DNA from: a candidate division WOR_3 bacterium SM23_42
GTDB taxonomy: Bacteria > Hydrothermota > Tepidihabitantia > SM23-42
NCBI GenBank assembly: GCA_001303785.1
Contig: LJUJ01000003.1
Coordinates: 14,027 to 78,026 of the forward strand
Direction: 5' to 3'
DNA length: 64,000 nt
Shown: positions 18,314-50,787 of the stretch, one piece after another
Position numbering within the stretch: the stretch's first letter is position 1
Layout: each line of letters starts with the position of its first letter
Position numbers and translations under genes: made by a program
Notes under the pieces: model-generated
Seen by the model: only the letters and a program-made list of their open reading frames with translations
The model's database searches: none
What the model was told of the DNA's origin: nothing

Positions 18314-19580
18314 AACCTATTGCGGCCACTCCGGCCAAATTACTCTCGGAATCAATTAAGAAGTTCCCATTAATCACCACCATCTCATTTTCGAACAACC
18401 CCTCCAGCACTGGGTAGTAACGGGTGCCGGTCTCATCTCCGTGCGCATAGCCCTCAGGTCCCAGCTTTACTACACGCGGCTGAAACTTATCATCACCAAT
18501 AGCCACCCAGACAATCTGTCGATTTCCCATATCGAGCACCGCATCTTTGGGAATCGTAATAACCATACTCGTGCCCGTTATACTGCGCACTTCATAAGGT
18601 GCTATTATCTTGGCTTCGATGAACATTCCTGGTTTCAATTTTGGTTCCATATTATTCAACCGTATCCGCGCCTTGACCGACCGTGTCTGCGAATCAAGAA
18701 TCGGACTAATAGATACAACCCTGCCTTTAAAGTTCTCACCCGGATACGCACTCGATGTTGCGATAACGTCCTGACCCCTATTGACCCAGCCCATGTCTGG
18801 TTCATAGATGTCGGCATAGATCCAGTTCCGTCCTTCAGGCATTATCAGTGATCTCTCAGGCTTCCTTGTTTGCCTCAAATGCCTTACTTCCGCGGCATCC
18901 ATTCCCAGCAGCCTTAGTTTGTATTCCGAACGTTGAATAAGCTGGGTAGCCCGCTCCTGTGCTGTCAGGCCATCACCATCAATCATATCGCTCATCTGAA
19001 GCGCATTGACGTATTCCTCCTGCGCCGTCACCAGTTCAGGATCATAGGCCACTGTTCCCACTGCCATTATTTCTTTATGCACGTGACGCCTCGTGGCGGG
19101 CACCGTTTCGATACCCGCGAGCTCTATATCCTGTGCGCTGAGGTGCAGTGCGTTTTCTGATTCACTTCCCTCATAAACTGGGATTAAAGACATACCACAA
19201 ATGGGGCAATTACCCTCTTCATCCGACTTCACTTCCGGGTGCATCGAACATGTCCAGTATTGTATCTCAGAATCTTTGCCGGTTTCGTTCTCCATCGACT
19301 GCTCTTTTTGCTGCATCAGCATGATATATTTTTCCGGATCTTTCATGAACTCAGTATCGCAACCCGGACAGCACATGTAATACTCTTGACCCTTATATCG
19401 AACAACAGGAGTGGATTCGTGAATAGTAAACTCATCACCGGTCACTGGACAAATCGCTTCGGAACCGATCAGTTCCTGATCTAGCTGAACTTTTGCCGCC
19501 TTTTCTCCACAAGAGAATACTACTAGCGAAGTCAACAATAAGAAAAAGACGACGATTGATATTCTAATGTCTGCAGACAT
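18255..19580 (-). CDS. cusB: RND efflux periplasmic adaptor (CusB/CzcB family) with N-terminal heavy-metal-binding domains
   Basis: N-terminal YHS/TRASH-like CPVTGDEF...YYMCCPGCD and a WTCSMHPEV...CPICGM metal-binding module, followed by membrane-fusion-protein beta-barrel/lipoyl regions. Confidence 0.85.
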   Translation of the reverse strand: MSADIRISIVVFFLLLTSLVVFSCGEKAAKVQLDQELIGSEAICPVTGDEFTIHESTPVVRYKGQEYYMCCPGCDTEFMKDPEKYIMLMQQKEQSMENETGKDSEIQYWTCSMHPEVKSDEEGNCPICGMSLIPVYEGSESENALHLSAQDIELAGIETVPATRRHVHKEIMAVGTVAYDPELVTAQEEYVNALQMSDMIDGDGLTAQERATQLIQRSEYKLRLLGMDAAEVRHLRQTRKPERSLIMPEGRNWIYADIYEPDMGWVNRGQDVIATSSAYPGENFKGRVVSISPILDSQTRSVKARIRLNNMEPKLKPGMFIEAKIIAPYEVRSITGTSMVITIPKDAVLDMGNRQIVWVAIGDDKFQPRVVKLGPEGYAHGDETGTRYYPVLEGLFENEMVVINGNFLIDSESNLAGVAAIGYGGALGVQEKEAAPVGHRR

Positions 19581-19589
19581 AATACCTCC

Positions 19590-20801
19590 TTATTTCTGAT
19601 TATCAAAGCCGACAGCTTCCTCTAGGTCGGCTACGGCCATGAATAGGTCTACTCGCGCCTGTTCGTATTCGAACTCGGTCTGGACTAACAATTTCTCACT
19701 CTCGAGTAGGCTTTGAAATTCTATCTTGTTCACCTCATATGAAGCAAGCGCGGACTTCACTCCGGCCTCGGCTTGCGGCAAGATTGAATTTTTGTACAAC
19801 TCCACTACATGCTGAAACTTTTCGACTCGCGTCTTCGCATCCTTTACTGCCAGCAGAAGATTATTTGCCATCGCCTGATAATTAGCAGATGCTTTCAGTA
19901 ATTTAGCCTCGGCTTCCCTGACAAACTCACGCTGTTTTGCCCAAAACCAGATAGGGAGGGTAATGCCGATCATATACTTGTTGCTGTACGCATCATTGTC
20001 CATTTTTTCCAGTGTATATCTGAACGCAAAATCTGGCAGGTATGTCTGGCGGGCCATCGACAACACGACCTCTGCTTTCCTACGCTGTAATTCATAAACC
20101 TTTAACAATGGCTGGTTTTCCTGAGCCAGCGCATACAACGTGGCTAATCCTAAGCTATCGGTAGTTGTCTCGAGCCGGAGAGGTCTGCCCACTTTCACTT
20201 CAAGATCACGGTTGAGCAAGACGTTGACTTTAGCTTCAGTTATATTCAAGTCATCTCGTAATACTACCAGTCGATTTTCAGACCGGGCCAGTTCCACCTG
20301 TGCTCTGAGCACCTCGGCCTGAGAAGCCTCACCAATTGAGTATTTATATACTGTGATGCTGTGTATCTGCTTGAGAAAAACAATTGATTTTTCTAGCGCG
20401 GCGATGTTTCTAGAAAGCAAGAATAGTTCTGCATAGGCTTTTTTCACATCCCTTATGATCTGTTGGATCCTGCTCACGTACAAATTACGATATTGATTGG
20501 TCTCGTTGCGGGCGACATGAGATAGGCTGGCGATTTTTGAGGGAAACGGTACCGGCAAGGTCAAGCTGTACATTCTCTTACTCTCACTGAACTCCGCAGC
20601 AATAGTGGGATCAGCCAAATGTCGAGCCCACGATGTGGTCGCACGGATAGCTTCATAATCGGCCTTGATCGCCTGCAATTCTGGATTGTTCGCCTTTGCC
20701 TCTTCAATCAACTCATCAAGGCGTAGCTCCTGGTCAGCATCTGCACGGCTCCAAACAGGCAAAGAAAAGAATAACAAAAACGCTAACAATAATCGCTTCA
20801 T
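19590..20801 (-). CDS. cusC: Outer membrane efflux protein (TolC/CusC family)
   Basis: Signal peptide; two-repeat coiled-coil/beta-barrel TolC-like organisation; about 400 aa; immediately upstream of cusBA. Confidence 0.85.
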   Translation of the reverse strand: MKRLLLAFLLFFSLPVWSRADADQELRLDELIEEAKANNPELQAIKADYEAIRATTSWARHLADPTIAAEFSESKRMYSLTLPVPFPSKIASLSHVARNETNQYRNLYVSRIQQIIRDVKKAYAELFLLSRNIAALEKSIVFLKQIHSITVYKYSIGEASQAEVLRAQVELARSENRLVVLRDDLNITEAKVNVLLNRDLEVKVGRPLRLETTTDSLGLATLYALAQENQPLLKVYELQRRKAEVVLSMARQTYLPDFAFRYTLEKMDNDAYSNKYMIGITLPIWFWAKQREFVREAEAKLLKASANYQAMANNLLLAVKDAKTRVEKFQHVVELYKNSILPQAEAGVKSALASYEVNKIEFQSLLESEKLLVQTEFEYEQARVDLFMAVADLEEAVGFDNQK

Positions 20802-26425: not shown

Positions 26426-26950
26426 GTGATGAAGCATAAAGAGATAGAAAGACTAATCCAGAAGAAGCTAGACCGCGAAATCGGCCTCGACGAGAAACGC
26501 AAGCTAGATAAGCATCTGGCTCAATGTCCTGAGTGTGTACTGTACTACCAGGAAATGATGCAGGCAAGCAAATCACTGAGAGAACTCACCGAGTTTTATC
26601 CACAAACCGACTTCAATGCTCGCGTACTTGCCAAATTGGGTTTGCGAAGGAGATTCGCCTGGACAAAAGCCGCATATGTCTTTGCCGGCAGTTGGCTCGC
26701 GGCAATTCTCTTCTTTGTCTACTCACCTTTGCCGGCGCAGTTCCTTAGCCGCGTTGCAACATCGGTCCCAGCGCTCATGAGATTGTATGACAAAGTTGAG
26801 TTGGTAATTGCCTCGTTAACTCAAGTGCTGTCCCCGGTAATCAAAAGCTCCTTCAGTACCTTGAATCCGTTCATTGGATTAGCCTTCAGTATTATGTTCG
26901 TTTATTTCCTAGGTAAAGCCTTACAAAAGGAGGTAAAATGCAAGGCCTAA
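26426..26950 (+). CDS. Anti-sigma factor with zf-HC2 zinc finger, membrane-anchored
   Basis: HLAQCPECVLYYQEMMQ (H-x3-C-x2-C, the ZAS-type motif) immediately downstream of the ECF sigma gene. A TM segment (AAYVFAGSWLAAILFFVY) and a second C-terminal hydrophobic region. Confidence 0.65.
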   Translation: MMKHKEIERLIQKKLDREIGLDEKRKLDKHLAQCPECVLYYQEMMQASKSLRELTEFYPQTDFNARVLAKLGLRRRFAWTKAAYVFAGSWLAAILFFVYSPLPAQFLSRVATSVPALMRLYDKVELVIASLTQVLSPVIKSSFSTLNPFIGLAFSIMFVYFLGKALQKEVKCKA

Positions 26951-28275
26951 CAATATTGCTCATACTTACAACATTATCCAGTCCACTGGCTGCAGATAGT
27001 CATGCTTACGTCGGCTCACTGCCCGCGGTTGAAGTAATCGCAACCAGATGCGCAGACGAAGACGTAGCTTGGAGTGGATTGATGCCCGCGGTTGAAGTAA
27101 CTGCACCGCGTTACGAGAATGAAGACATTGCCTGGTGCGGTATGCTTCCAGCAATGGACGTTACCGCCAACCGGCAGGCGCATAATCGTACGAAAAACAC
27201 CGAGCCTACCCACGCACAAGCAATCCTTGTCAGTCATGTCACCGAACCCGACGTTGAACTTGACCTGTCCATTGCCGACCTGAAGATATTTGGTGCAATA
27301 CCCGCTGCGGTAACATTTAGTGGTGACTACAGTCTGGCCGAAAACGATACAATTTACGAAGACGTGACGGTGACCGGCGGTAATGCCAAGATAGACGGAG
27401 TGATCAGTGGTGATCTAGCGGTAATGGGCGGCAGAGTAGATATCAACGGAATGGTCGACGGCGACGTCGCGGTCTTCGGCGGCAATCTTGATCTAATGGG
27501 TATTATTGATGGTGATGCAGCAGTATTAGGTGGCAATATTAGGAATCGTGGCGCCATTGAGGGAGACCTACACGTAGTTGGCGGGACGGTTTATCTTGAC
27601 TCCGCATCAGTAGTTGAGGGAAATATCAGCATGGTCGGCGGCACTGTTGATCGTGACACCAACGCCGTGGTCCTGGGCACAATAGAATCGATTGAAATCA
27701 AGGCATTAGAAAAGGTATTGCCACGCATAAGCAAGGCGTTCAGGTTTCCCCGGATGCTACCCAGTGCGGCATTTCCCAGAGCAGTCTTCATCGGCATGCT
27801 TGTTGTCCTCTACTTATTCAATGTCCTTGTGTTGCTTATATTCCCAAATGCCGTGGAAAGAGTGAAGGAAAAAATCAAACAAAGCATATGGGCATCCGTC
27901 GGCTTGGGTATTGTGATGGAACTTCTTTTCGTACCTCTGATAGTGTTACTTGCCGTTTCAATAATCGGAATACCGCTCATCATACTACTGCCATTGGCTG
28001 TGTTTGTGGCCATACTATTCGGAGTCTCTGCTCTATCCCTCACCACTGGTGACCGCGTGTGCAAAGGATTCAACTGGAAGGTCGAGAGTCAACTAGGTAG
28101 GTTCAGTCTCGGTTGGCTCGCGCTCATGCTCATTCCGATTGTGCTCATTCTAATCGGACCACCTGTCTTTATCCTTGGCTTTGTCATCATCTATGTGGTG
28201 ATGACAATCGGCTTGGGTGGTATAATATACACGCTAATAAAAAGGAAAACAGTCGAAGTTAAAATAAAGAAATAA
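26938..28275 (+). CDS. Secreted/membrane beta-helical repeat protein (DUF4097/bactofilin-like repeats) with C-terminal polytopic membrane domain
   Basis: Signal peptide. Three tandem ~21-aa repeats (LPAVEVIATRCADEDVAWSG...). About 8 short G-D-x-x-V-x-G-G repeats (GDLAVMGGRVDINGMVDGDVAVFGGNLDLMGIIDGDAAVLGG...), as seen in DUF4097/LiaG-like and bactofilin beta-helices. Then about 5 hydrophobic TM helices. Start overlaps the anti-sigma stop. Confidence 0.5.
   Translation: MQGLTILLILTTLSSPLAADSHAYVGSLPAVEVIATRCADEDVAWSGLMPAVEVTAPRYENEDIAWCGMLPAMDVTANRQAHNRTKNTEPTHAQAILVSHVTEPDVELDLSIADLKIFGAIPAAVTFSGDYSLAENDTIYEDVTVTGGNAKIDGVISGDLAVMGGRVDINGMVDGDVAVFGGNLDLMGIIDGDAAVLGGNIRNRGAIEGDLHVVGGTVYLDSASVVEGNISMVGGTVDRDTNAVVLGTIESIEIKALEKVLPRISKAFRFPRMLPSAAFPRAVFIGMLVVLYLFNVLVLLIFPNAVERVKEKIKQSIWASVGLGIVMELLFVPLIVLLAVSIIGIPLIILLPLAVFVAILFGVSALSLTTGDRVCKGFNWKVESQLGRFSLGWLALMLIPIVLILIGPPVFILGFVIIYVVMTIGLGGIIYTLIKRKTVEVKIKK
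27019..27204. repeat. Intragenic tandem repeat, about 63 bp x 3 (third copy diverged)
   Basis: ctgcccgcggttgaagtaatcgcaacc... recurs as atgcccgcggttgaagtaactgcaccg... about 63 bp downstream, then a degenerate third unit. Encodes the LPAVEV... peptide repeats. Confidence 0.6.
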
Positions 28276-28381: not shown

Positions 28382-30445
28382 GTGATAAGTGTCGACCATT
28401 TGAAAGAATTGATCGCCAGTGGGGACTTTGATAAGGTAGAAAACCTCTGGACAGATTTGATTACGGAGAGGAATATCGGTCTGGCCGAATACTTTGAGAT
28501 AAGCGATGCCCTTAAGCAAGTTGGTGAGCTCAAACGAGCATGCTTGCTGCTGGAACTGCTCGGCGACCACTACGAGACGCAACGAAATTACAGCGCTGCG
28601 ATCGAAGTGCAAAAACACATGCTACGCTATCGCCAGGAAGATCTCTCAATACGTAAGAGACTAATCGAGCTGTATCGCAAGCAACACCCTAATTCACAAC
28701 ATCTCGAAGAATACTTGGAGCTTTCAGGTTTGAGCAAATCTGACCCCATCATGAAGGCGATGCAGCGATTCGAAGAATTCCTTAAATACGACGTGGGCAA
28801 TTACTTTTACTTTGAGCGCTATGGCATGGGTAAAATCGTTGAAGTAATACCCCAAAAACGGGAAATCGTGGTCGATTTCGAAAAGAAGAATCGCCATTTT
28901 CTCGATATCGACGTTGCCCGGGGACTACTGTCACCGGTTAATGCCGAGCACTTCCTCTACAAGAAAAACAAGGAACTTGATGACTTGAAATCACTGGCAT
29001 CCTCACAACCGGTGCAACTTGTGGTAATGATCCTCCAGAGCTTCCGCGAACCACTCTCCGCGCCAAGAATTAAAGGTTATCTTGAGGGTATAATTGATAC
29101 AACCGAATTGAATTACTTCTGGGGAAAAATCAGGAAAGACCTCGAAAAAAATGATAACGTTAGGGTCGCTGGTAGGACAAATAAGACCTACACATACGTT
29201 GGTTCAGCAGCGGCTAAGCAAGATCACGCGATAAAAGCCTTCAATGAGGCAAATATTCGAGAGAAGTATCTATTGGCTGAAGAATATTTAAAGAAAATGC
29301 CTGAAGTTTTCAACATTCTGACACCAAGACTGAGACAATTAGGTCCCCAGGTTCGAAAAGAACATCCCGGGATTGCCCTCGACATACTTATGCTGTTTCA
29401 TGACATCGGGGAACTCAGCGAGATTGATCATTCAACAAAGGAACTGCTGAACGTGAGTAAGCCTGAAGACATACTCAACGACATGGCAAGCCACGAGCAT
29501 CAAGCCAGGCTACTACTCTATCTAAAGGAAAAATATCCTGACGAATGGCTGCAAACTGCCAAGAAAATATTGCTCAACAGCGAAGATTTCAAATTACTCG
29601 ATTCCGTGGCAGATAACTTGAAAAGCACGCCGCACACACTTGAGGATATTAACCACAAGATATTTGCCATGCCAAAACAATATACTAAACAGTATCTCTG
29701 GATGCTAAAAAGAATCGAAGCAGGTGCTCTCGCCGAATATTTGAAACCCACGCACATTCCCAGATTGATCGACACCCTTGAATACATAAGCGGCATCAAG
29801 GCAATCGTGAAGAAAATATTGTCTCTCGAAGCTTTCGATACTATGATCGCAAACGCCACGGAGAATGAAGCTTCAAGAATACGAAAATCCCTCAATAGAA
29901 GTGCTGCACTGAATGATTACGAAAAAAAAGGTCTCTTAAGGATTATCGAGCATCACTTCCCGGATTTGTTCGAAAAAAAATACGATATAATATACACAAC
30001 TGCAGCTGCGCTAAAAAGAAAAAAAGAAGAACTCAACCATATCCTCAGCGTCGACATACCTGCAAATAAAAAGGAAATTGGCCGGGCGCGTGAGTTCGGT
30101 GATTTGAGTGAAAACTTTGAATATAAGGCGGCCAAAGAAAAACAGGATCAGCTCTACGAGAAAGTGAAAACCATTGAGTCTGAATTGCAGAAGATACAAC
30201 TCATTGAGTCCTTAGAGATAAGGACAGACCGTGTTGAGATTGGAACCGCAATTACGTTAAGAAGCTCCAGGGACAATTCATTCGTCGTGTACAGAATACT
30301 TGGCCGGTGGGATACCGACCTGGCACACAAAACCATTTCTAACGAGGCGCCACTTGCCCGAGCGATGCTGGGTAAAAAACGTGGTGATTCAATTGAAATC
30401 GAGGGCATCGAATACGAAATCGCCGAAATCGGCAAGGCTTTCTGA
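28382..30445 (+). CDS. GreA/GreB-family transcription elongation factor with a ~500-aa N-terminal extension
   Basis: C-terminal ~160 aa matches GreA: EFGDLSENFEYKAAKEKQDQLYEKVKTIESEL...ISNEAPLARAMLGKKRGDSIEIEG. Starts with GTG. Confidence 0.75.
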   Translation: MISVDHLKELIASGDFDKVENLWTDLITERNIGLAEYFEISDALKQVGELKRACLLLELLGDHYETQRNYSAAIEVQKHMLRYRQEDLSIRKRLIELYRKQHPNSQHLEEYLELSGLSKSDPIMKAMQRFEEFLKYDVGNYFYFERYGMGKIVEVIPQKREIVVDFEKKNRHFLDIDVARGLLSPVNAEHFLYKKNKELDDLKSLASSQPVQLVVMILQSFREPLSAPRIKGYLEGIIDTTELNYFWGKIRKDLEKNDNVRVAGRTNKTYTYVGSAAAKQDHAIKAFNEANIREKYLLAEEYLKKMPEVFNILTPRLRQLGPQVRKEHPGIALDILMLFHDIGELSEIDHSTKELLNVSKPEDILNDMASHEHQARLLLYLKEKYPDEWLQTAKKILLNSEDFKLLDSVADNLKSTPHTLEDINHKIFAMPKQYTKQYLWMLKRIEAGALAEYLKPTHIPRLIDTLEYISGIKAIVKKILSLEAFDTMIANATENEASRIRKSLNRSAALNDYEKKGLLRIIEHHFPDLFEKKYDIIYTTAAALKRKKEELNHILSVDIPANKKEIGRAREFGDLSENFEYKAAKEKQDQLYEKVKTIESELQKIQLIESLEIRTDRVEIGTAITLRSSRDNSFVVYRILGRWDTDLAHKTISNEAPLARAMLGKKRGDSIEIEGIEYEIAEIGKAF

Positions 30446-41752: not shown

Positions 41753-41780
41753 TTGACGTAATATGATATTTGTTTATAAT
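41753..41780 (+). promoter_or_regulatory. Sigma70-type promoter (TTGACG-N16-TATAAT), ~55-nt leader to the 41840 ATG
   Basis: TTGACG at 41753-41758 and TATAAT at 41775-41780. Confidence 0.35.
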
Positions 41781-41839: not shown

Positions 41840-44800
41840 ATGAAAACTTGTCCAGTCTGCAATAATCAGAGCGTCCCCGGCTACGCAAATCATTGTCCGA
41901 ATTGCGGCGTAACACTCACGGCATACAAGAAGCAAACCGTAGAGGCCGAGCGCCTCCGGCTGTTGGGTGGTGAACTCAGACTGCTAACAGTATTCTTCGT
42001 GCAATTGATAGGCATCGAAAAGTTGATAAAAAGGGACACCGATGAAACGATAGAAAAACACATCCAGGATTTTCTGACCAACATCGAGAAGATCATTCAA
42101 GACTATGACGGAACGTCAAATCGTATCATTCCTGACTTCCGCATCCTGGGTATCTTTGGCGCCCCACATGCACACTATGACGACCCCTTGAGGGCAATAC
42201 GTTGTGCAAGCAATATCCAAGACTGGTGGCTAAAAAGCAAAAAGGAATCTAAGTTCCTCAGGAACGTCGATACGAGAATCGGAGTTAACACCGGCCGGGC
42301 ATTTTTCGGTTTCGTGCTTAAGGAATCACCATTCTTGACTGTCATTGGAGACACCATCAACACCGCGGCGCGCCTCACCGAAATAAGCCAGCAAAATGAG
42401 ATACTAATGACCAAGACCACGTACAACGCGGTGCTACGATATGCAGACGTCACACATATTGGCGAACAGGCGGTTAAAGGTAAAAAAACCAAAGTCGATA
42501 TCTACCGGCTCAGCAAAATCAGAACCACACCAAGAGTAACTGAGCCGCAGAGAATGCCGCTCTACGGCCGTGAGGCCGAATTGAAAAAATTGATTGCCCT
42601 TGCCGATAGGTTAGCCGACCATCGTGCAGTCTATTGCGCTATCAACGGGCAAATGGGCAGTGGGAAGAGCAGGCTTAAGGAGGAATTTGCATTTCATTTA
42701 AGCAGGAATGAAGCAATCAATCATTTTGAAACGAACTGCTCGGTCGATGTGCAATCACCATACTATCCTTTCAGGTCCTTACTCAGACGTTTTTTAGACC
42801 TGCACGAGTTCGACAGCCAGGATACCATGACCAAACGGATTCACGATGTGGTTGGTCAGAGAGAGCTTAGTCCACCCATCGCCAAGGGTATTAAGCACTT
42901 GCTCTTAACCGATATCGGCCGGTTGCGCAGCGAAGACATACGCGCGGTCAACGATGAAATCTACGCCTCGGTGCGCAATTTCATAAGGAGTGAATGTCGG
43001 CAAAAAGCTCTGGTACTGATCTTCGAGAATTTTGGCCAAGCCGATGTGATGTCCAAGGAGTTAATCACATATCTGATCTCCGAACTCGAAGACGAACCAA
43101 TAATGTTTCTGCTGATAAATGCGCCCGACAAGTTTCTCCAAACGGCCTCAATTCCCGTCGATAGAATTGACCTGAAACCTTTATCAAAGAAAGACATCTA
43201 TGCGCTGATTCGACATATGCTCACCAATGTTGATAAACATCTAGCCGACTTCATATATCGTGAAGCAGGCGGTAGTCCACTCTTCACAATCGAAGCCATC
43301 CGCAACACACGGCGCAATAAAATTATAAAAAAGGTCTCGGGAACGTGGTGTTTGGAAAAAGAACAGGTACTGGTTTTTCTCGATGACCTTTACGGATTAG
43401 TCATGTCGACGATCGATTCCCTTGCCTCTAACGCGCGTCTTATTATTGATTATGCCTCGGTCATCGGCTACCGTTTCAGCTTCCGCATATTGAAAGAGCT
43501 CCTTGCTTGGCCTGATTTGAAAGCACAGCTGGACTACCTGATTGCTGAGGGATATGTCGTACTGTCGTCAGACGGCGAAGATCCAGTATACATTTTCCGT
43601 CACAATCTACTCAAAGACGCCGCCTATCAAGTGCTCCCGGTTAGAAAACGAAAAGAAATACATCAAAAAGTGGCGTCTCTTTTCGAACAGGTATACCGCG
43701 ACACTTTGTCCACGTTTTACGAAGACGTCGCAAGGCATTATCAGGCCTCCGACCGACATGCGCGTGCTGCCGAGTATTTTAAGCTGGCCGGCGATAAGGC
43801 AAAGAACCTCTACGCGATTGATCAGGCATTGTCTTTTTATGAACAAGTTCTGAATACGAAGAACGAAATCGGGGATGAACTACCAAAAACCCTATACCAG
43901 GACGTCATGCTGAACTTGGTAGACATCTATGAAATCAAGGGTGACATCAAGAAGATGGAAAGAACGGCGCGGGAACGACTTGCTGATGCACGTCAGGACA
44001 AGGACCTAAAAAATGAGGTATTGTTTGCGGAACGTGACGCATATGCGCTCATACTACTTAACAAAACAGAAGAAGCGGAGCAACTATTAATATCCAGCAT
44101 AGACAGATGCGACGAGCAAATGGTAAGCATCCTAGCCATCTTGTATTCGGATTTAGGCATGCTCTATGCAAACAAATATGAATACGATAAGTGTCTCATA
44201 AACTACAATCTGAGTTGGAGAACGGCACACGCTAACAACATACGAGAAGCTGAGATAGTGTGCCTGTTCAATCTATCGAATCTGCACAAGAGCCTGGGCA
44301 ACTATGAACAGGCATTGGACTATCTGCAACATGGTTTGGAGATCCTTATCGATGCCGAGGATATCAGAAGGAACATCGAACTGCAATATCTGATTGCGAA
44401 CATCGACTATGAAATATGGAATATTGAAAAAGCCAAGGGACTGCTAGCAGAGTGCTTCATGACCGCGGATTCTATTGGCAGTTTTGACGCATACATAAAG
44501 TCCGCGTTGGATCTTGCTTTCATCCATTCACTCAACGGCGATGTACGGCAGGTAGAAAAATACCTGCAATCTGTCGATAAGAAGATATCATTCCTCATTC
44601 GTGAGAGCCTGCTTGCCGAAATCGACCTAAAAAAGGCACTGGTCTATTTCAACAATCAGGAATACAAGAAGGCACGTGATTACGTAGTGAACAGCATGAG
44701 AATTGCCGAAAAGTCATACCGCGCAGAGATCGTGTTCCAATGTCAAAGGTTATTGTCCCTGATCGACAAACAACATGACCTAGAACATGCCAAAAAGGCA

Positions 44801-45016
44801 CTCGAGCTAGCAGAACTAATGAAACTACCACCTTTGATCGCCGCCGCTCTGTATAGGGTCACCGAAATCTTTTCAGAGAAGGGTGATATTGAACGGGCAC
44901 GCTACTACGGAAGAAAAGCCTTGCTAGTCTATGATGACATAAAATCGCGACTCAATGATAAGAACCAGCAACATTATGTGAATCGACCTGAATATACGAG
45001 GCTGCTGGAGATTTAG
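41840..45016 (+). CDS. Multidomain signalling protein: N-terminal zinc ribbon + class-III nucleotide-cyclase homology domain (metal-binding Asp residues substituted) + STAND/AAA NTPase + TPR repeats
   Basis: CPVCNNQSVPGYANHCPNCG. Cyclase homology domain (CHD): TVFFVQLIGIE has Gln where the first metal Asp is expected, RILGIFGA has Ile where the second is expected, but RIGVNTGRAFFG and IGDTINTAARLTE retain the transition-state Asn/Arg. Walker A GQMGSGKSRL; long TPR-like C-terminal half. Confidence 0.8.
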   Translation: MKTCPVCNNQSVPGYANHCPNCGVTLTAYKKQTVEAERLRLLGGELRLLTVFFVQLIGIEKLIKRDTDETIEKHIQDFLTNIEKIIQDYDGTSNRIIPDFRILGIFGAPHAHYDDPLRAIRCASNIQDWWLKSKKESKFLRNVDTRIGVNTGRAFFGFVLKESPFLTVIGDTINTAARLTEISQQNEILMTKTTYNAVLRYADVTHIGEQAVKGKKTKVDIYRLSKIRTTPRVTEPQRMPLYGREAELKKLIALADRLADHRAVYCAINGQMGSGKSRLKEEFAFHLSRNEAINHFETNCSVDVQSPYYPFRSLLRRFLDLHEFDSQDTMTKRIHDVVGQRELSPPIAKGIKHLLLTDIGRLRSEDIRAVNDEIYASVRNFIRSECRQKALVLIFENFGQADVMSKELITYLISELEDEPIMFLLINAPDKFLQTASIPVDRIDLKPLSKKDIYALIRHMLTNVDKHLADFIYREAGGSPLFTIEAIRNTRRNKIIKKVSGTWCLEKEQVLVFLDDLYGLVMSTIDSLASNARLIIDYASVIGYRFSFRILKELLAWPDLKAQLDYLIAEGYVVLSSDGEDPVYIFRHNLLKDAAYQVLPVRKRKEIHQKVASLFEQVYRDTLSTFYEDVARHYQASDRHARAAEYFKLAGDKAKNLYAIDQALSFYEQVLNTKNEIGDELPKTLYQDVMLNLVDIYEIKGDIKKMERTARERLADARQDKDLKNEVLFAERDAYALILLNKTEEAEQLLISSIDRCDEQMVSILAILYSDLGMLYANKYEYDKCLINYNLSWRTAHANNIREAEIVCLFNLSNLHKSLGNYEQALDYLQHGLEILIDAEDIRRNIELQYLIANIDYEIWNIEKAKGLLAECFMTADSIGSFDAYIKSALDLAFIHSLNGDVRQVEKYLQSVDKKISFLIRESLLAEIDLKKALVYFNNQEYKKARDYVVNSMRIAEKSYRAEIVFQCQRLLSLIDKQHDLEHAKKALELAELMKLPPLIAAALYRVTEIFSEKGDIERARYYGRKALLVYDDIKSRLNDKNQQHYVNRPEYTRLLEI

Positions 45017-45017
45017 G

Positions 45018-45665
45018 ATGCTCTGCATGACCTGCAAGAAAGAAGTAAACCAACCGCTCAACTTCTGCCCATGGTGCGGCACCACGCTACGTGCCGAGAC
45101 TCCGTCACGTTTTGAGAACGTAAAGCTGACATTCCTGCGCGTCGATCTGTCCGGGTTCACTAAGATGAGTGAAGCCATGATCGCTGAAGATGTCATGGCA
45201 GTCCTGAACGAAATCTTTGGGGTCTTCGCAAAAATCGTAGAGTCTAACAAAGGAATAGTATATCAGCTTATCGGAGATGAGATAGTCAGTATTTTCGGAC
45301 TCAACATAGAATCGGGTTTTGCACCCCATATGGCGATTCTGACCGCGGATGAGATGTTCAGCAAGTTGCTCGATTTCAATAAGAAGGGAGGTTTCAAAAG
45401 CCCAATAGGACTCAAGGTTGGTGCCGAGATCGAATCAGCCTCGATATTCGATCTGCACTATGACCTAAAGAGTGCACTAATTCTAACCAAGGGCTTTAGG
45501 AAAAGCCAGATACTACAGAAAAACGCGGCCACTAATACGATCTTAGTTGGTGAAAATCTTCATAAAGTAACCAAAGGCTTCTTCGACTACCGCGAGGTCG
45601 GCGAATTCGTTGAGGAATCATTTGCAGTAAAAGCATATGAGTACAAACTAAAGTTGAAAGGCTAA
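45018..45665 (+). CDS. Small zinc-ribbon + nucleotide-cyclase homology domain protein (retains both metal-binding Asp, lacks transition-state Asn/Arg)
   Basis: CMTCKKEVNQPLNFCPWCG. FLRVDLSGFTKMSE has the canonical F.D..GFT with Asp; VYQLIGDEIVSIFG has the canonical IGD...FG with Asp. IGLKVGAEIES matches the IGIHTG-like region. Leu/Phe replace the Asn/Arg in the region aligned to GDTVNxAxR. Start overlaps the upstream stop by 1 nt. Confidence 0.6.
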   Translation: MLCMTCKKEVNQPLNFCPWCGTTLRAETPSRFENVKLTFLRVDLSGFTKMSEAMIAEDVMAVLNEIFGVFAKIVESNKGIVYQLIGDEIVSIFGLNIESGFAPHMAILTADEMFSKLLDFNKKGGFKSPIGLKVGAEIESASIFDLHYDLKSALILTKGFRKSQILQKNAATNTILVGENLHKVTKGFFDYREVGEFVEESFAVKAYEYKLKLKG

Positions 45666-47857
45666 TGGAAGAACATATATTAGACCTATACAATGATTTA
45701 CTTAAACTTCTAAGGATGGGTGTATACCTAGCAAGAACCTATCCTGACGGTCATCCTTCGCAGATGCGCACGGTGCAGCGGTTGCACAAGCTATTCAACG
45801 AACTCCGAATCGAAAAACGCGTTGTATCGATCGTCGTCATCGAGAATGTCTTAACGATTGAGAACGAGAGATTCGATTCACAGAAAATAAGCATCGTGAA
45901 ATATCTCGTGGATAGGTTTCATCAAATTGGCGTCAACAGTATCACCTTCAATACCGAAGTCTCGGAAAGCGACCTCAATGAATTCTTCTCTGTGATGTCG
46001 ATGCAACCCTCAGACATCGAAGACTTTGGCGATGTCGTTGCCGTGATGCGAATGCGGGACATTACCGGCGTAAAAGTTAATATCTACCGTGTAGGTGTTG
46101 TCTCCTCAGACGAGGACATGAGGGAATTGGATTGGGAGAACTTCCTCGAATCACTTATAACTGCGGAAACACCCAAGACAGAAGAAGAACGACTCAAGGA
46201 ATTAGGCAATTTCCTCGGCGTGCTTGGTGTTGACGGCAGCGACAGTACTGAAATTCAATCTAACAAAATAGTTGGCGGCCTCGAAAAACTCGCCCTCATG
46301 GTCGTGGACCGGTACGGCGAAGAACGATGGAATGAATACTCGTTAGTTTTTTCGAGAATCCTTGCCGTGCTATCACCCTCGGTCAAGAAGAATATCGTCC
46401 GGTACCGCACCGAGAATAAGAAACTTGCCGACCTATTCCGCAAGTTGGTGCCGACCATGGACGACGAGGACATCGTCGACATCGTCGTGACCATCGCCAA
46501 GAAGAAATCGCCCAGATCCGAAGATGACGTAGTGGACATCCTATCAAACGTCTCGAGCGTCAAGTTGCCAGATATCCTGACTACCTTAAGACAACGCGCT
46601 CCTGAATTCTACACACACAAGTTCGTGGACCGATTAATGGGTCAGGTGAAATCTAGGAAAGGTCCGGAAGCCGCGACCAAATTCGTGATTAGGAATCTTG
46701 AACTGGAGATGAAGAGCCAATTCCCCAAGCTGCGCAGCGCAAAAGCCGAGGAGCGAATAAAAGCAATCGAGGCTCTCATCAAATTCGCGGGTAAATTATT
46801 CGAGTCCAAGAATTACGACTTGGTTCGCCTCATGGCAAACCGACTGGATACAATGGCCGAGGCAGAATCTGACCTCAATGCCTTTGCCAAAGCCATCGAC
46901 GCCATGAAGATTCTCTACATCAAGGCACACGAAGATGAGGCCAGTGAGGTAATGGATTTCATTGCCAAGAAGTATGCAAAGTATTTGATGCGTAAAGACT
47001 CGATATTCCTCGAACGTAAGCGGTTCGTGATCAAGGCAATCGGTGAAACGAAGGATCCCACTTACATCCCTGAACTGATATCCTCACTGTGGGCAGCCGG
47101 CACTTACGCAGAAGCACGGGAAGCGTTGATTGCGCTTGCCGACCATTCCGCTCCCCTGTTGATTCAAACCCTCCGGGAGACCGAAGACTATTCGGTCAGA
47201 ATGAAAATCCTTGATATCTTGAAGAGGATGACGGATAGAGTTATACCCGAGGTAATCGGCTTGCTTAAGGCTGAAGAATGGTATGCGCGGCGTAATGGTG
47301 TGTTCATATTAGGCGAATTAAAGGCCGAATCGACGGTTGACGACATCGGGGCATTATTAAATGAAGATATCGAGCAGATACAGCTTGAGGTAGTGACGAG
47401 TTTAGGTAAAATCGGTGGTACCAGGTGTAAAGAATATATTCAGAAAGCACTCGGCAGCAAATACACCGACGTTACACTCGAGGCCATGAAGAACTTGGAC
47501 CCAGAAGATTTCAAAGAAAAAATCCCCGACGTCCTAGAATGGTTGAAGAGACAAAAGAGATTTCCGGATGAAGCAGAAGAACAGTTTAGATCCCGGGTCA
47601 TCGATGTTTTGGCCAAATGCAAATACGAATCGGTGATCAATGCACTTACTGCAGTGATCAAAGAACGCGCCTGGTTCAAGGGGAACTTACTTCAAGCGAC
47701 CAAGACGGCCGCCCTCAACGCACTTGCGCAAATCGGCACTCCAAAAGCAATGCAAGTCCTACAAAAAGCCGCCAACAACCGAAACCAGTTCATAGCCCTA
47801 ACCGCACAGGATGTGCTCCAGCGGGTTACAACCATACCTGAGGAAACCACGAGATAG
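45665..47857 (+). CDS. HEAT-repeat (PBS-lyase-like) protein with unrecognised N-terminal domain
   Basis: The C-terminal half holds multiple ~30-aa repeats of the form ...ARRNGVFILGELKAESTVDDIGALLNEDIEQIQLEVVTSLGKIGG..., typical of HEAT_2/PBS-lyase repeats. Start codon overlaps the previous stop (ATGG/TAATGG). Confidence 0.55.
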   Translation: MEEHILDLYNDLLKLLRMGVYLARTYPDGHPSQMRTVQRLHKLFNELRIEKRVVSIVVIENVLTIENERFDSQKISIVKYLVDRFHQIGVNSITFNTEVSESDLNEFFSVMSMQPSDIEDFGDVVAVMRMRDITGVKVNIYRVGVVSSDEDMRELDWENFLESLITAETPKTEEERLKELGNFLGVLGVDGSDSTEIQSNKIVGGLEKLALMVVDRYGEERWNEYSLVFSRILAVLSPSVKKNIVRYRTENKKLADLFRKLVPTMDDEDIVDIVVTIAKKKSPRSEDDVVDILSNVSSVKLPDILTTLRQRAPEFYTHKFVDRLMGQVKSRKGPEAATKFVIRNLELEMKSQFPKLRSAKAEERIKAIEALIKFAGKLFESKNYDLVRLMANRLDTMAEAESDLNAFAKAIDAMKILYIKAHEDEASEVMDFIAKKYAKYLMRKDSIFLERKRFVIKAIGETKDPTYIPELISSLWAAGTYAEAREALIALADHSAPLLIQTLRETEDYSVRMKILDILKRMTDRVIPEVIGLLKAEEWYARRNGVFILGELKAESTVDDIGALLNEDIEQIQLEVVTSLGKIGGTRCKEYIQKALGSKYTDVTLEAMKNLDPEDFKEKIPDVLEWLKRQKRFPDEAEEQFRSRVIDVLAKCKYESVINALTAVIKERAWFKGNLLQATKTAALNALAQIGTPKAMQVLQKAANNRNQFIALTAQDVLQRVTTIPEETTR

Positions 47858-47923: not shown

Positions 47924-47951
47924 TTGACACCTAGGTAATTTCCGTTATAAT
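47924..47951 (+). promoter_or_regulatory. Sigma70-type promoter (TTGACA-N16-TATAAT) ending 5 nt before the hsp20 ATG; predicts a leaderless transcript
   Basis: TTGACA at 47924-47929 and TATAAT at 47946-47951; ATG at 47957. Confidence 0.45.
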
Positions 47952-47956
47952 CAACT

Positions 47957-48385
47957 ATGAAACGCCCAGTCTCAGAAAAAGATCTAGAAACGCACATTGA
48001 ATTCATCATCGACGACAACATTGATTACGATGACAGTAACGTCTTCCCAGAATTCGCTAACTGGCAACCACTGTATAATCTATACACTACACCTGAAGGT
48101 ATAATGATTCACCTTGAACTAGCAGGAGTAGATACACGCGACATAGTTATCTATTTGCGCACCAGACATATGATTATCATGGGCAACCGCACAACACCCC
48201 CCGGATTGACCGGGGATTGCTGTGTTTTTCACAATCTAGAAATTCCATATGGCCGCTTCATCCGTCGAATCGACTTTCCAATCCCAATCGAGACACGACA
48301 ACATCAACACGAAATGCGCGACGGGCTTCTAACCATACATTTAAAGACATTAGAGGAAAAAATCATCCCCATCGAAGGTGAGTAG
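47957..48385 (+). CDS. Hsp20/alpha-crystallin family small heat-shock protein
   Basis: IHLELAGVDTRDIVIYLRTRHMIIMGNR...YGRFIRRIDFP...DGLLTIHLK matches the alpha-crystallin domain beta-strand pattern. Confidence 0.7.
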   Translation: MKRPVSEKDLETHIEFIIDDNIDYDDSNVFPEFANWQPLYNLYTTPEGIMIHLELAGVDTRDIVIYLRTRHMIIMGNRTTPPGLTGDCCVFHNLEIPYGRFIRRIDFPIPIETRQHQHEMRDGLLTIHLKTLEEKIIPIEGE

Positions 48386-48441: not shown

Positions 48442-50787
48442 ATGGTTGATACGCTAATCAAAATCCCTGAAGAGCTTGGCATCATTCCTATCAAAGGTGG
48501 TGTCATATTCCCGGACCAGGTGGTGCCACTCATAATTCACACACAGAAGCTGGCAAAACTCATCGATGAAATCCTGACCACTAATAAGCTAGCCGGCGCC
48601 CTAACCCAAAGAAATCCAGACATTGAAGAACCGAAGCCTCATGAGGTATTCGACATCGGTTGTGTCATTCAGATCACAAAAATGCTCCGCTTCCCCGATG
48701 GCACCATCAGATTACTCATTAAGGGCCTTAAGCGCTTCCGGGTCACGGAATTCACTCAAGATCAACCGTATCTAAAGGCGAAAATAAATATTGTAACAAC
48801 GAAATATAAGAAAACCGTTGCGCTCGAAGCCATGATGCGCAACGTCGTGACCATGTTTCAACATCTCGTATCGCTCGCCCCTTATTTACCTGACGAGTAC
48901 GCTGCTGTGATCCTAAACATGGAATCTGCGGATAACCTCATCGACTTTGTGACCAGCACGATTAACTTCGACTACCACGAGAAGCAAGCTCTCCTTGAAA
49001 CGACAGAACCAAAAGAGCGCTTTGCAAAACTCATTCCCATGCTACAAAAGGAAATCAGCATACTCGAACTCGGTGCCAAGATTCGCTCCGACGTGAAGAG
49101 CGAGTTGGATAAAGGTCAGCGTGAATTCTATCTGCGCGAACAACTGAAGGCAATTCAAAAGGAGTTGGGCGAGACCGACGAACACGCGCGCGAGATCGAT
49201 GAATTGAGAAAGAAAATCTTGGAAGCAAGAATGCCCAAGGAGACCAATAAGGTAGCCCTGAAAGAACTCGACCGTCTGGCCAAGATGCCCCCCCACGCCG
49301 CCGAATATACGGTATCGAGAACCTATATTGATTGGCTAATTTCTTTACCCTGGTCGCTTTCTACACAGGACAACATGAACATCAAGCGGGCCCAGAAGAT
49401 ACTTGATGAGGATCACTACGATCTGGAAAAAGTCAAGGAACGAATACTCGAATACCTCGCGGTGAAAAAATTGAAACCGGACTCGAAGGGGACAATACTC
49501 TGCTTCATCGGACCGCCCGGTGTGGGCAAGACATCGCTCGGCAAATCCATTGCCCGCGCCCTGGGACGTAAGTTTATCAGAATCTCTTTGGGCGGAATCA
49601 GAGATGAAGCGGAGATCAGAGGGCATCGCAGAACTTATGTGGGCGCCTTGCCCGGAAGAATTATCCAGTCGGTCAAAAATTGCGGTACAAATAATCCTGT
49701 ATTCATGCTTGACGAAATTGACAAAGTAGGCACCGACTTCCGCGGGGATCCCTCTTCGGCTCTTTTGGAAGTACTCGACCCCGAACAGAATAATGCCTTT
49801 TCCGACCACTATCTAGAAGTACCTTTTGACCTCTCACGTGTCATGTTTATCGCAACTGGGAATATTATTGACCCCATTATCCCAGCACTTAAAGATCGCA
49901 TGGAGATGATTGAACTACCTGGTTATATACTAGAAGAAAAACTTGAAATTGCGAAGAAATATTTGATTCCGCGCCAGATACAAGAAAATGGCCTTAAGTC
50001 CAAGAACATATTGTTCGATGATGCAGCTGTCAAGCGCATTATCAGTGCCTACACAAAAGAAGCAGGGGTACGGAATCTCGAACGTCTTATTGGCTCCATC
50101 TGCCGCAAGGTAGCAAAGCGAATCGCCGAAGGCAAGCGGGGTAAGGTTAAGTTAAGTGCGAAAAAACTAACTCAATTCCTTGGACCTCAGAAAATTGTGC
50201 CTGAGGTTGCGGCCCGTGATGGTCAAATCGGTGTCGCAACCGGGCTCGCCTGGACTCCCTACGGTGGTGAAATTTTGTTCATCGAAACGCTTAAAACGAG
50301 AGGCAAGAAGGGTTTGATTCTAACCGGCCTTTTAGGCGACGTCATGAAGGAATCGTGCCAGGCGGCGCTTTCGTACTTAAAGACAAGAATGCGTGGTTGG
50401 GGAATTGCCTTGAGCGATCTCGAAAATCAAGAATTGCACATTCATATTCCTTCCGGGGCTATCCCTAAAGATGGCCCCTCTGCGGGACTCGCCGTCGTCA
50501 TGTCACTGGCCTCGCTTATTCGGAACAAATCAATTGATTCCAAGATCGCCTTTTCGGGTGAAATCACTCTTGCCGGCCGGGTTCTTCCAGTCGGAGGCAT
50601 CAAGGAAAAGGTAATTGCCGCAAAAAGGGCAGGTATCGAGAAGATTATGTTGCCCAAGGAGAACGAAAAAGATTTGCAGGAAATTCCCAAGCACGTGCGT
50701 GCCGGCCTGTCGTTCATCTTCGCGTCGAGAATCGATCAAGCGTTGAATAATATCTTTCACAACAAAAAACATAAGGTCAAGAAATGA
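48442..50787 (+). CDS. lon: ATP-dependent Lon protease (LonA)
   Basis: Lon N-domain, Walker A GPPGVGKTS, sensor/arginine finger regions, and a C-terminal protease domain with PKDGPSAG (catalytic Ser) and a Lys dyad. Confidence 0.95.
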   Translation: MVDTLIKIPEELGIIPIKGGVIFPDQVVPLIIHTQKLAKLIDEILTTNKLAGALTQRNPDIEEPKPHEVFDIGCVIQITKMLRFPDGTIRLLIKGLKRFRVTEFTQDQPYLKAKINIVTTKYKKTVALEAMMRNVVTMFQHLVSLAPYLPDEYAAVILNMESADNLIDFVTSTINFDYHEKQALLETTEPKERFAKLIPMLQKEISILELGAKIRSDVKSELDKGQREFYLREQLKAIQKELGETDEHAREIDELRKKILEARMPKETNKVALKELDRLAKMPPHAAEYTVSRTYIDWLISLPWSLSTQDNMNIKRAQKILDEDHYDLEKVKERILEYLAVKKLKPDSKGTILCFIGPPGVGKTSLGKSIARALGRKFIRISLGGIRDEAEIRGHRRTYVGALPGRIIQSVKNCGTNNPVFMLDEIDKVGTDFRGDPSSALLEVLDPEQNNAFSDHYLEVPFDLSRVMFIATGNIIDPIIPALKDRMEMIELPGYILEEKLEIAKKYLIPRQIQENGLKSKNILFDDAAVKRIISAYTKEAGVRNLERLIGSICRKVAKRIAEGKRGKVKLSAKKLTQFLGPQKIVPEVAARDGQIGVATGLAWTPYGGEILFIETLKTRGKKGLILTGLLGDVMKESCQAALSYLKTRMRGWGIALSDLENQELHIHIPSGAIPKDGPSAGLAVVMSLASLIRNKSIDSKIAFSGEITLAGRVLPVGGIKEKVIAAKRAGIEKIMLPKENEKDLQEIPKHVRAGLSFIFASRIDQALNNIFHNKKHKVKK

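Follow-up and report, generated by a model that had tools for sequence, protein, structure and literature searches.

A Three-Gene Cassette of a WOR-3 Bacterium Encodes a Putative C1/C2-Like Heterodimeric Class III Cyclase with a STAND-Type Module

The Three-Gene Cassette

The window analysed here, a stretch of 64,000 nucleotides from the candidate division WOR-3 bacterium SM23_42, carries on its forward strand a cassette of three genes (41840-47857). The first two genes code for proteins of very unequal size, called the large and the small protein below, which both contain a cyclase homology domain (CHD) of the class III nucleotide cyclases; the third codes for a HEAT-repeat protein. Synthesis of cAMP and cGMP is the universal task of class III cyclases, whose active sites are located at the dimer interface. 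The CHDs of the large and the small protein lack catalytic residues in a complementary manner, and together they probably form one active site in the way of the C1 and C2 domains of mammalian adenylyl cyclase. The layout of the cassette is:

41753-41780, + strand: promoter-like site (TTGACG, 16-nucleotide spacer, TATAAT), about 60 nucleotides upstream of the large gene
41840-45016, + strand: large subunit gene, open reading frame of 1058 residues with a zinc ribbon, a C2-like CHD, a STAND NTPase (AAA_16) and TPR repeats
45018-45665, + strand: small subunit gene, open reading frame of 215 residues with a zinc ribbon and a C1-like CHD
45665-47857, + strand: third gene, open reading frame of 730 residues, HEAT-repeat protein

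The large gene ends in TAG (45014-45016), a single base separates this stop codon from the ATG of the small gene at 45018, and a GGAG is found 8 nucleotides upstream of this ATG, within the 3' end of the large gene. The stop codon of the small gene and the ATG of the HEAT gene share one nucleotide (TAATG at 45665). The first-pass annotation of this DNA had placed a one-nucleotide overlap between the two cyclase genes and had taken it as a sign of co-expression. The overlap was misread, as these two genes are 1 nucleotide apart and it is the small and the HEAT genes that overlap; the argument can nevertheless be made from the tight spacing of -4 to +5 nucleotides that is general for the cassette. 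The same annotation described a system of two genes. The large/small pair stands, but an invariably linked third gene was missed: the HEAT gene belongs to the unit together with the large and the small genes, and the unit comprises three genes.

The promoter-like site at 41753-41780 gave 11 of 12 matches in a consensus scan and stands as a match to the consensus only. A perfect sigma-70 consensus (TTGACA, 16-nucleotide spacer, TATAAT) was found at 47924-47951, just upstream of hsp20 (47957-48385), which is followed by lon (48442-50787). The position of this second site ahead of hsp20 suggests that the operon ends at 47857. Taken together, the arrangement suggests a three-gene transcription unit from 41840 to 47857, with promoters that are matches to a consensus. 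The G+C content of the cassette is the same as that of the surrounding DNA, and its neighbours are the housekeeping genes rlmN, acylphosphatase, hsp20 and lon. An Rfam scan found no element in the 5' leader of the cassette, the sole match in the window being a tRNA at 1398-1470. The 730-residue HEAT protein matches AMJ83_02860 of the candidate division WOR-3 bacterium SM23_42 with 100% identity.

The Large Protein

The following features of the large protein are all encoded on the + strand; the catalytic positions are named after their canonical residues.

41849-41908, + strand: zinc ribbon (C4, C7, C19, C22), four Cys invariant in 31 orthologues
41972-42517, + strand: C2-like CHD, residues 45-226, from alignments to CyaB, Cya2 and RhGC
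42002-42004, + strand: Q55 at the position of the first metal Asp (HMMER, MAFFT, hmmalign)
42122-42124, + strand: R95 at the specificity Lys position (HMMER alignment to solved cyclases)
42134-42136, + strand: D99, second metal Asp (HMMER, MAFFT, hhalign)
42338-42340, + strand: T167 at the specificity Asp/Thr position
42359-42361, + strand: N174 at the catalytic Asn position, in GDTINTAARL
42371-42373, + strand: R178 at the catalytic Arg position, in GDTINTAARL
42476-42478, + strand: K213, KG-loop lysine
42557-43108, + strand: STAND-type NTPase (AAA_16, Pfam), Walker A GQMGSGKS at 42647-42670
43937-45013, + strand: TPR / MalT-like helical repeats, about residues 700-1058 (Pfam TPR_12, TPR_MalT)

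The large protein matched the Pfam cyclase profile PF00211 with 50.9 bits (1.9e-13), above the gathering score of 21.9. The match covers residues 49-224 of the protein and positions 9-181 of the 183 in the profile. The catalytic residues were assigned by pairwise HMMER alignment to the solved cyclases CyaB (3r5g), Cya2 (2w01) and RhGC (5oyh), which agreed with one another, and by MAFFT and hmmalign. The six positions, in the order first Asp, Lys, second Asp, Asp/Thr, Asn and Arg, read Q-R-D-T-N-R. The second Asp, D99, lies within "IIPD-F-RILGIFG" and is followed by a one-residue insertion.

Beyond the CHD, an AAA_16 match (3.3e-18) is followed by TPR_12 and TPR_MalT, and the presence of a STAND-NTPase/TPR module in this partner, as annotated earlier, was thus borne out by Pfam. 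In the orthologues of this module, G270, G273, G275 and K276 (GxxGxGK) are invariant and the glutamate of the Walker B motif "LIFE" is at least 90% conserved. The protein thereby has what defines a STAND NTPase, namely a P-loop domain with Walker A and B motifs followed by TPR repeats. The TPR/MalT-like region is presumed to be a sensor or interaction module.

The Small Protein

The corresponding features of the small protein are:

45105-45647, + strand: C1-like CHD, residues 30-210 (AlphaFold2, Foldseek, conservation)
45144-45146, + strand: D43, first metal Asp, in FLRVDLSGFT
45156-45161, + strand: F47/T48, GFT phosphate loop
45264-45266, + strand: Q83 at the specificity Lys position
45276-45278, + strand: D87, second metal Asp, in LIGDE
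45492-45524, + strand: helix GFRKSQILQKN, residues 159-169, in place of GDxxNxAxR (conservation and AlphaFold2 model)
45498-45500, + strand: R161 in place of Asn
45510-45512, + strand: I165 in place of Arg

The score of the small protein against PF00211 (28.6 bits, 1.3e-6) also exceeds the gathering score of 21.9, with residues 30-136 only being matched. Its zinc ribbon matches DUF7575 (Pfam), and the four Cys are invariant across orthologues. Residues were assigned from HMMER alignments to CyaC, Cya2 and CyaB and from a profile-profile comparison by hhalign of 31 large N-termini with 40 small proteins. The latter gave a probability of 98.9% and the same register, pairing D99 with D87, N174 with R161, R178 with I165 and T167 with L154 (large-small). 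L154 thus occupies the Asp/Thr specificity position; the KG-loop motif is absent, and the six catalytic positions read D-Q-D-L-R-I. An AlphaFold2 model (pLDDT 87, pTM 0.80) predicts a complete CHD topology, with the beta-alpha-alpha-beta-beta-alpha-beta core and the C-terminal half, in which the helix 159-169 is placed where the Asn/Arg helix would be, in agreement with the R161/I165 register. When the model was compared with solved structures by Foldseek, the best matches were CyaC (1wc3) and CyaB (3r5g), with TM-scores of 0.70-0.79 over about 190 columns, and the mammalian C1 chains 1azs_A and 1cjk_A were also among the matches. On this modelling, the small protein is a full CHD although Pfam matched just its N-terminal half.

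Much of what the first-pass annotation had read from the letters of the two proteins was reproduced. Both begin with a CxxC...CxxC zinc ribbon followed by a CHD, as the open reading frames, the PF00211 matches and the invariant Cys confirm; the Asn and Arg of the large protein (N174 and R178 in GDTINTAARL) are intact, both Asp of the small protein (D43, D87) are canonical, and the specificity residues of the large protein are the non-canonical Arg95 and Thr167. Two readings needed correction. The large protein was said to have replaced both Asp: Gln55 does stand at the first position, but the second Asp is kept (D99, 50 of 50 orthologues) and is not Ile. In the small protein, Leu and Phe were named in place of Asn and Arg; it is true that neither Asn nor Arg is present, but the actual residues are R161 and I165 according to HMMER against CyaB, hhalign and the helix of the AlphaFold2 model. 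The complementarity itself was upheld by profile alignment of the catalytic positions (HMMER, hhalign, hmmalign).

Conservation of the Residues and of the Cassette

Residue conservation was counted in 50 distinct large and 51 distinct small orthologues. The large ones were taken from gene loci; a search of an index of 5.8 billion proteins with the N-terminal 240 residues of the large protein as the query returned 5 fragments only. More than 120 cluster representatives make up the small family, nearly all of them 212-219 residues long, and those members with a named source organism are all from WOR-3.

In the small orthologues, the first Asp, the Phe and Thr of the loop and the second Asp (D43, F47, T48, D87) are present in 51 of 51. 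The Asn position is occupied by R, K, A, G, I, T, S or F and the Arg position by I, V, L or A, so that Asn and Arg, respectively, were never found at positions 161 and 165 in the 51 sequences. The helix around them is itself well kept: G159, F160, L166 and Q167 are invariant, and K162, K168 and N169 are at least 94% conserved. The large orthologues present the reverse picture. D99, T167, N174 and R178 are found in 50 of 50 and the KG lysine in 46 of 50, while the first Asp position drifts (N in 34, S in 8, D in 5, Q in 2 and G in 1) and the GFT loop is degenerate. The Lys-equivalent is R in 26, K in 12, Q in 7 and another residue in 5, and is therefore basic in 38 of 50. This complementary pattern is kept over about 50 orthologue pairs with identities down to about 45%. 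Outside the family, 63 of 114 single-CHD relatives have the full canonical DKDTNR, nearly all others keep both Asp, the Asn and the Arg, and the outgroup CHDs in metagenome loci are mostly canonical too. As far as sequences can tell, the strictly selected residues are exactly those predicted to build one composite site, and the symmetry-related ones vary.

The gene order is equally constant. In 38 loci from GTDB species (WOR-3, Stahlbacteria and TA06, one genome per species), the large gene is upstream and the HEAT gene downstream of the small gene, with spacers of -4 to +5 nucleotides. A reverse search of metagenome contigs with the large CHD found the small and HEAT genes in 13 of 13 sufficiently long orthologous loci. 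The only exceptions to this linkage are contigs that end too early; on contigs that are long enough, the two cyclase partners were never found apart, whether in the 38 genome loci or in all 13 metagenome loci. Three diverse genomes share the order large, small, HEAT, with different flanking genes each time. The divergent branch represented by locus L045 keeps the cassette (977/191/704 residues), in which the large protein has Gly for the first Asp and the small one has Leu for Asn. Another divergent branch, L141/L142, keeps it as well (1070/214/737 residues, with differing flanking genes), and the large protein of L141 is without both Asp, having Lys and Glu instead. From this distribution, the cassette appears to be a fixed, vertically inherited feature of the lineage.

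A few irregular loci were noted along the way. In the WOR-3 metagenome-assembled chromosome CP070802.1 (L009:5032-6999), the large gene is open for 655 residues only, and on one metagenome contig (L069:4798-5462) the small gene is split into two open reading frames. These interruptions are taken to be frameshifts, assembly errors or pseudogenes. At L141:11420-13423, a GAF-GAF-GGDEF gene is located two genes downstream of the HEAT gene, which may be a coincidence.

The HEAT-Repeat Protein

Two parts can be distinguished in the product of the third gene:

45665-46084, + strand: N-terminal alpha/beta domain, residues 1-140, predicted
46133-47833, + strand: HEAT-repeat solenoid, residues 157-723 (Pfam HEAT_2, HEAT_PBS)

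Residues 1-140 gave no sequence match in Pfam or the Protein Data Bank (PDB). Within this domain, Y26, P27, G29, H30 and P31 are invariant. Structure comparison of the predicted solenoid revealed similarity to generic scaffolds only, and the HEAT protein probably acts as a scaffold or as a partner for input or output.

Fused and Other Paired Relatives

Outside the family, the closest relatives are STAND cyclases with lengths of 1000-1600 residues. At least two CHDs were found in 31 of 145 nearest representatives, many of them complementary, and the earlier description of the WOR-3 pair as a novel signalling design was therefore overstated. In P0268, P0280, P0323 and the metagenome protein L098 (L098:4628-8857), a C2-like CHD is followed by a C1-like CHD, AAA_16 and TPR. 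The C2-like CHD of these four proteins is without Asp and keeps Thr, Asn and Arg; the C1-like CHD keeps both Asp and is without Asn and Arg. P0252, P0266 and P0349 have the reverse order, with the C1-like before the C2-like CHD in one chain. One member of the P0268 cluster is annotated as coming from a Candidatus Poribacteria genome.

The fused CHD-CHD-AAA_16-TPR proteins thus resemble the WOR-3 pair in having a STAND/TPR chassis, a C2-like and a C1-like CHD, and complementary losses. The motif "LRxDLSGFT" is common to the fused C1-like CHD and the small family, and the C1-like CHDs of L098 and P0280 have Gln at the Lys position, as in the small protein. They differ in that both CHDs are in one chain without zinc ribbons at these positions and, in the case of L098, in that there is no adjacent HEAT gene. 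Such fusions are Rosetta-stone evidence and therefore argue that the two kinds of CHD act together. A crude neighbour-joining tree of the CHDs, without support values, placed the large CHDs with the C2-like domains and the second gene of locus L081 (below) and the small family with the first gene of that locus; this grouping is no more than a hint.

Two further gene pairs are worth recording. At L081:1401-3662 and L081:3663-4715, two adjacent CHD-AAA_16 genes have complementary residues: the first is C1-like (D-Q-D, with Ala for Asn) and the second is C2-like (Ala at the first Asp, with Thr, Asn and Arg kept). At L121:2837-6064 and L121:5815-9057, and likewise in L122, adjacent HAMP-CHD genes of about 1080 residues are complementary as well, the first reading HKDTNR (His at the first Asp) and the second DKDTQK (Gln and Lys at Asn and Arg). 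This pair may be another bacterial heterodimeric cyclase with a receptor-type architecture. A relation of the large protein to the TOMM kinase/cyclase fusion family (NCBIfam TIGR03903) was considered and rejected, since it scored 146.9 bits against a cut-off of 705.75 and only the shared CHD-AAA-TPR region matches.

Proposed Mechanism

The reading favoured here, to which a probability of roughly two in three is given, is that the locus encodes an obligate C1/C2-like heterodimeric class III cyclase under the control of a STAND/TPR module, with a single active site and a pseudo-site. The small CHD would take the role of mammalian C1 or of the alpha subunit of soluble guanylyl cyclase (sGC), supplying the D-x-x-G-F-T triphosphate loop and the metal-binding pair D43 and D87. 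The large protein would act, through its N-terminal CHD, as C2 or sGC beta: R95 and T167, in a class IIIb-like Lys/Thr pattern, would contact the base, N174 and R178 would serve ribose binding and the transition state, and K213 would be the KG-loop lysine. Head-to-tail pairing of the two CHDs would then create one complete active site. The symmetry-related site would be non-catalytic, with a lining made of the small helix GFxKSQxLQKN and of Q55 and D99 from the large protein. This pseudo-site is probably a regulatory pocket, as the conservation of the helix 159-169 suggests a pocket or a contact surface. The STAND NTPase/TPR part may switch the cyclase on or off upon binding of a ligand or partner protein at the TPR region, a role that is proposed because the Walker motifs are intact and by analogy with other STAND proteins; the HEAT protein would serve as scaffold or as input/output partner. 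The product is probably cAMP, given that the Arg/Lys and Thr pair and the relatives CyaC and CyaB are those of class IIIb adenylyl cyclases.

Complementary residues spread over two CHDs appear to make up one complete site, the two partners occur together at all sufficiently long loci, and neither protein has all six canonical residues in its one chain, unlike the homodimeric bacterial enzymes. The result was consistent among HMMER alignment to solved cyclases, profile-profile comparison with hhalign, and hmmalign, and the C1/C2-like complementarity with one composite site and one pseudo-site, as first annotated, held in all in silico tests that were run.

Several observations weigh against the heterodimer. 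The pairing of the large with the small protein is deduced from their sequences. The second Asp of the large protein, D99, is invariant, and 5 of 50 large orthologues also have an Asp at the first position; these might retain some activity as homodimers. The large orthologues vary at the Lys-equivalent, which is unusual for a substrate-defining residue and weakens the call of the product. The strongly conserved helix of the small protein could have a function besides lining a dead site. Finally, Pfam found no cyclic-nucleotide-binding, CRP or phosphodiesterase domain in the 31 proteins of the window that were scanned.

A wider reading is less likely than not. The WOR-3 lineage, including Stahlbacteria and TA06, might have a three-protein cyclic-nucleotide machine with an allosteric pseudo-site pocket and an obligatory HEAT subunit, and catalytic asymmetry would be a bacterial feature in both split and fused form. 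The pocket would then be the counterpart of the forskolin site, made from the small GFxKSQxLQKN helix and from N or Q at position 55 and D99 of the large protein.

Alternative Explanations

An unlikely alternative is that the cassette encodes a pseudo-enzyme module, in which the CHDs pair and bind a nucleotide or another ligand without turnover and provide the STAND/TPR part and the HEAT protein with a sensor or a means of dimerisation. Each CHD alone is catalytically incomplete, the Lys-equivalent of the large protein is variable, and there is a precedent in Rv1359 of M. tuberculosis, which was proposed to be a regulator (PMC3961136). However, the invariance of the composite-site residues over about 50 orthologues, together with the drift of the symmetry-related ones, is a signature of retained catalysis, and a module for binding only would not need metal ligands together with a transition-state Asn and Arg.

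It is quite unlikely that the two proteins act separately. In such a scheme, STAND oligomerisation would activate the large protein as a homodimeric cyclase of a weak or non-canonical kind. STAND proteins are known to oligomerise, and identical CHDs would thereby be brought together. The small protein might then be an enzyme of its own, an inhibitor, or a decoy that caps the CHD of the large protein. The retention of D99, the presence of both metal Asp in 5 of 50 large orthologues and the conserved basic or polar residues K162, Q167, K168 and N169 of the small protein, near the missing Asn and Arg, are in line with this. Yet 45 of 50 large orthologues are without the first Asp, the GFT loop is degenerate in all of them, and the L141 protein has neither Asp. 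These losses contradict a separate homodimeric function, as does the lack of Asn and Arg in the small protein. A decoy or inhibitor would have no need for invariant metal Asp and a GFT loop, and the fused C2-like/C1-like relatives argue for joint work.

Anti-phage defence by an Avs-like STAND sensor with Pycsar-like cyclase signalling upon infection is very improbable: Avs proteins are generally built from an N-terminal effector, a STAND NTPase and a repeat sensor, and both CHDs gave weak PADLOC matches to PycC models (1.6e-12 and 7.9e-8), but these are no better than the generic PF00211 match, the cassette is without a TIR, transmembrane or nuclease effector gene, its flanks are housekeeping genes, its G+C content equals that of its surroundings, and the same three genes occur at every sufficiently long related locus examined in 38 species representatives, when defence systems are typically patchy and mobile. 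Membership in Pycsar was rejected on the same grounds, as the PycC match is unspecific, the neighbours are the HEAT protein, hsp20 and lon, and the distribution is not patchy.

Comparison with Known Cyclases

A close parallel to the proposed heterodimer is mammalian adenylyl cyclase (C1-C2, 1azs and 1cjk) together with ADCY10, in which two complementary CHDs likewise form one active site and one pseudo-site. One CHD gives the two Asp and the other gives Lys/Asp (Arg/Thr in WOR-3), Asn, Arg and the KGK lysine; the pseudo-site of the membrane enzymes binds forskolin. A single mammalian chain holds both domains, which are accompanied by 12 transmembrane helices or, in the case of ADCY10, arranged as a soluble tandem, whereas two adjacent genes are used in WOR-3. 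The C2-like partner of WOR-3 keeps the second Asp, unlike mammalian C2, and the regulators are G proteins in the mammalian enzyme as against a STAND/TPR module and a HEAT protein in WOR-3. The pharmacology of human adenylyl and guanylyl cyclases is founded on this asymmetric design of one catalytic site and one regulatory pseudo-site, the invention of which is commonly credited to eukaryotes, after the duplication and fusion of genes.

Separately encoded subunits are also known. In sGC, alpha supplies the metal ligands and beta supplies Asn, Arg and the specificity residues, which leaves one catalytic site and one pseudo-site. Both sGC alpha1/beta1 (3uvj) and the heterodimeric rhodopsin-cyclases RGC/NeoR, which occur in chytrid fungi (PMC8815786), are obligate heterodimers of separately encoded class III subunits. 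These are eukaryotic, and the partners are similar in size and architecture (H-NOX/PAS/coiled coil, or rhodopsin). The WOR-3 partners, in contrast, are bacterial, STAND-linked and very unequal (215 versus 1058 residues).

Among bacteria, the mycobacterial STAND-type cyclases Rv0386, Rv1358 and Rv2488c resemble the large protein in that an AAA/STAND ATPase and helical repeats come after the CHD. They end in a LuxR helix-turn-helix, unlike the WOR-3 protein, and Rv0386 is active alone. The gene of Rv1359, a small protein that consists of a CHD only, adjoins that of Rv1358. Neither these STAND cyclases nor Rv1359 have the zinc ribbon or the HEAT partner of WOR-3. As a CHD without the first Asp and an Arg, Rv1359 is thought to be unable to form an active homodimer (PMC3961136). 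It is thus without residues of both kinds and, unlike the small protein of WOR-3, gives no neat complement. According to a specialist perspective, trans-complementation was seen between an Asp mutant and an Asn/Arg mutant of Rv1625c (Guo et al. 2001, as cited in PMC9552081). The principle of complementary sites was thereby shown to work for a bacterial CHD. GcyB and GcyC of Rhodospirillum centenum were considered as a precedent for a two-gene cyclase and rejected, being described as non-catalytic subunits or hypothetical proteins, with no complementary CHD pair.

In the same perspective, bacterial class III enzymes are described as homodimerising and a fused dimeric form as unknown in bacteria (PMC9552081). 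A search of the literature, with subscription journals outside its reach, found no natural bacterial complementary CHD pair, two-gene or fused, and no WOR-3 cyclase. The principle of C1/C2 and sGC is known, then, and what WOR-3 would add is a bacterial two-gene form on unequal proteins under a STAND switch. The WOR-3 locus would be a compact bacterial counterpart of the asymmetric eukaryotic cyclases and, together with the fused relatives, appears to indicate that the same catalytic division of labour evolved in bacteria. The three-protein reading, if true, would contradict the view of bacterial enzymes given in that perspective. If confirmed, the system would provide a small soluble model (215 residues and a domain of about 200 residues) for the regulation of a cyclase by its pseudo-site, would show the gating of an enzymatic output by a STAND NTPase, and would give initial access to the second-messenger signalling of an uncultured phylum.

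Other Features of the Window

Some features away from the cassette were recorded. The open reading frames at 446-1324, 4763-6007 and 26938-28275 (292, 414 and 445 residues) have no Pfam match at the thresholds used. At 28382-30445, a 687-residue open reading frame has the N- and C-terminal domains of GreA/GreB as its only Pfam matches, at residues 537-683; about 536 N-terminal residues are without a family match, and the protein is unusually long for a Gre factor. On the - strand at 15035-20801, there is a heavy-metal efflux cluster consisting of an AcrB-family pump, a CusB-like adaptor and an outer-membrane factor, of which the adaptor carries HMBD and YHS metal-binding domains.

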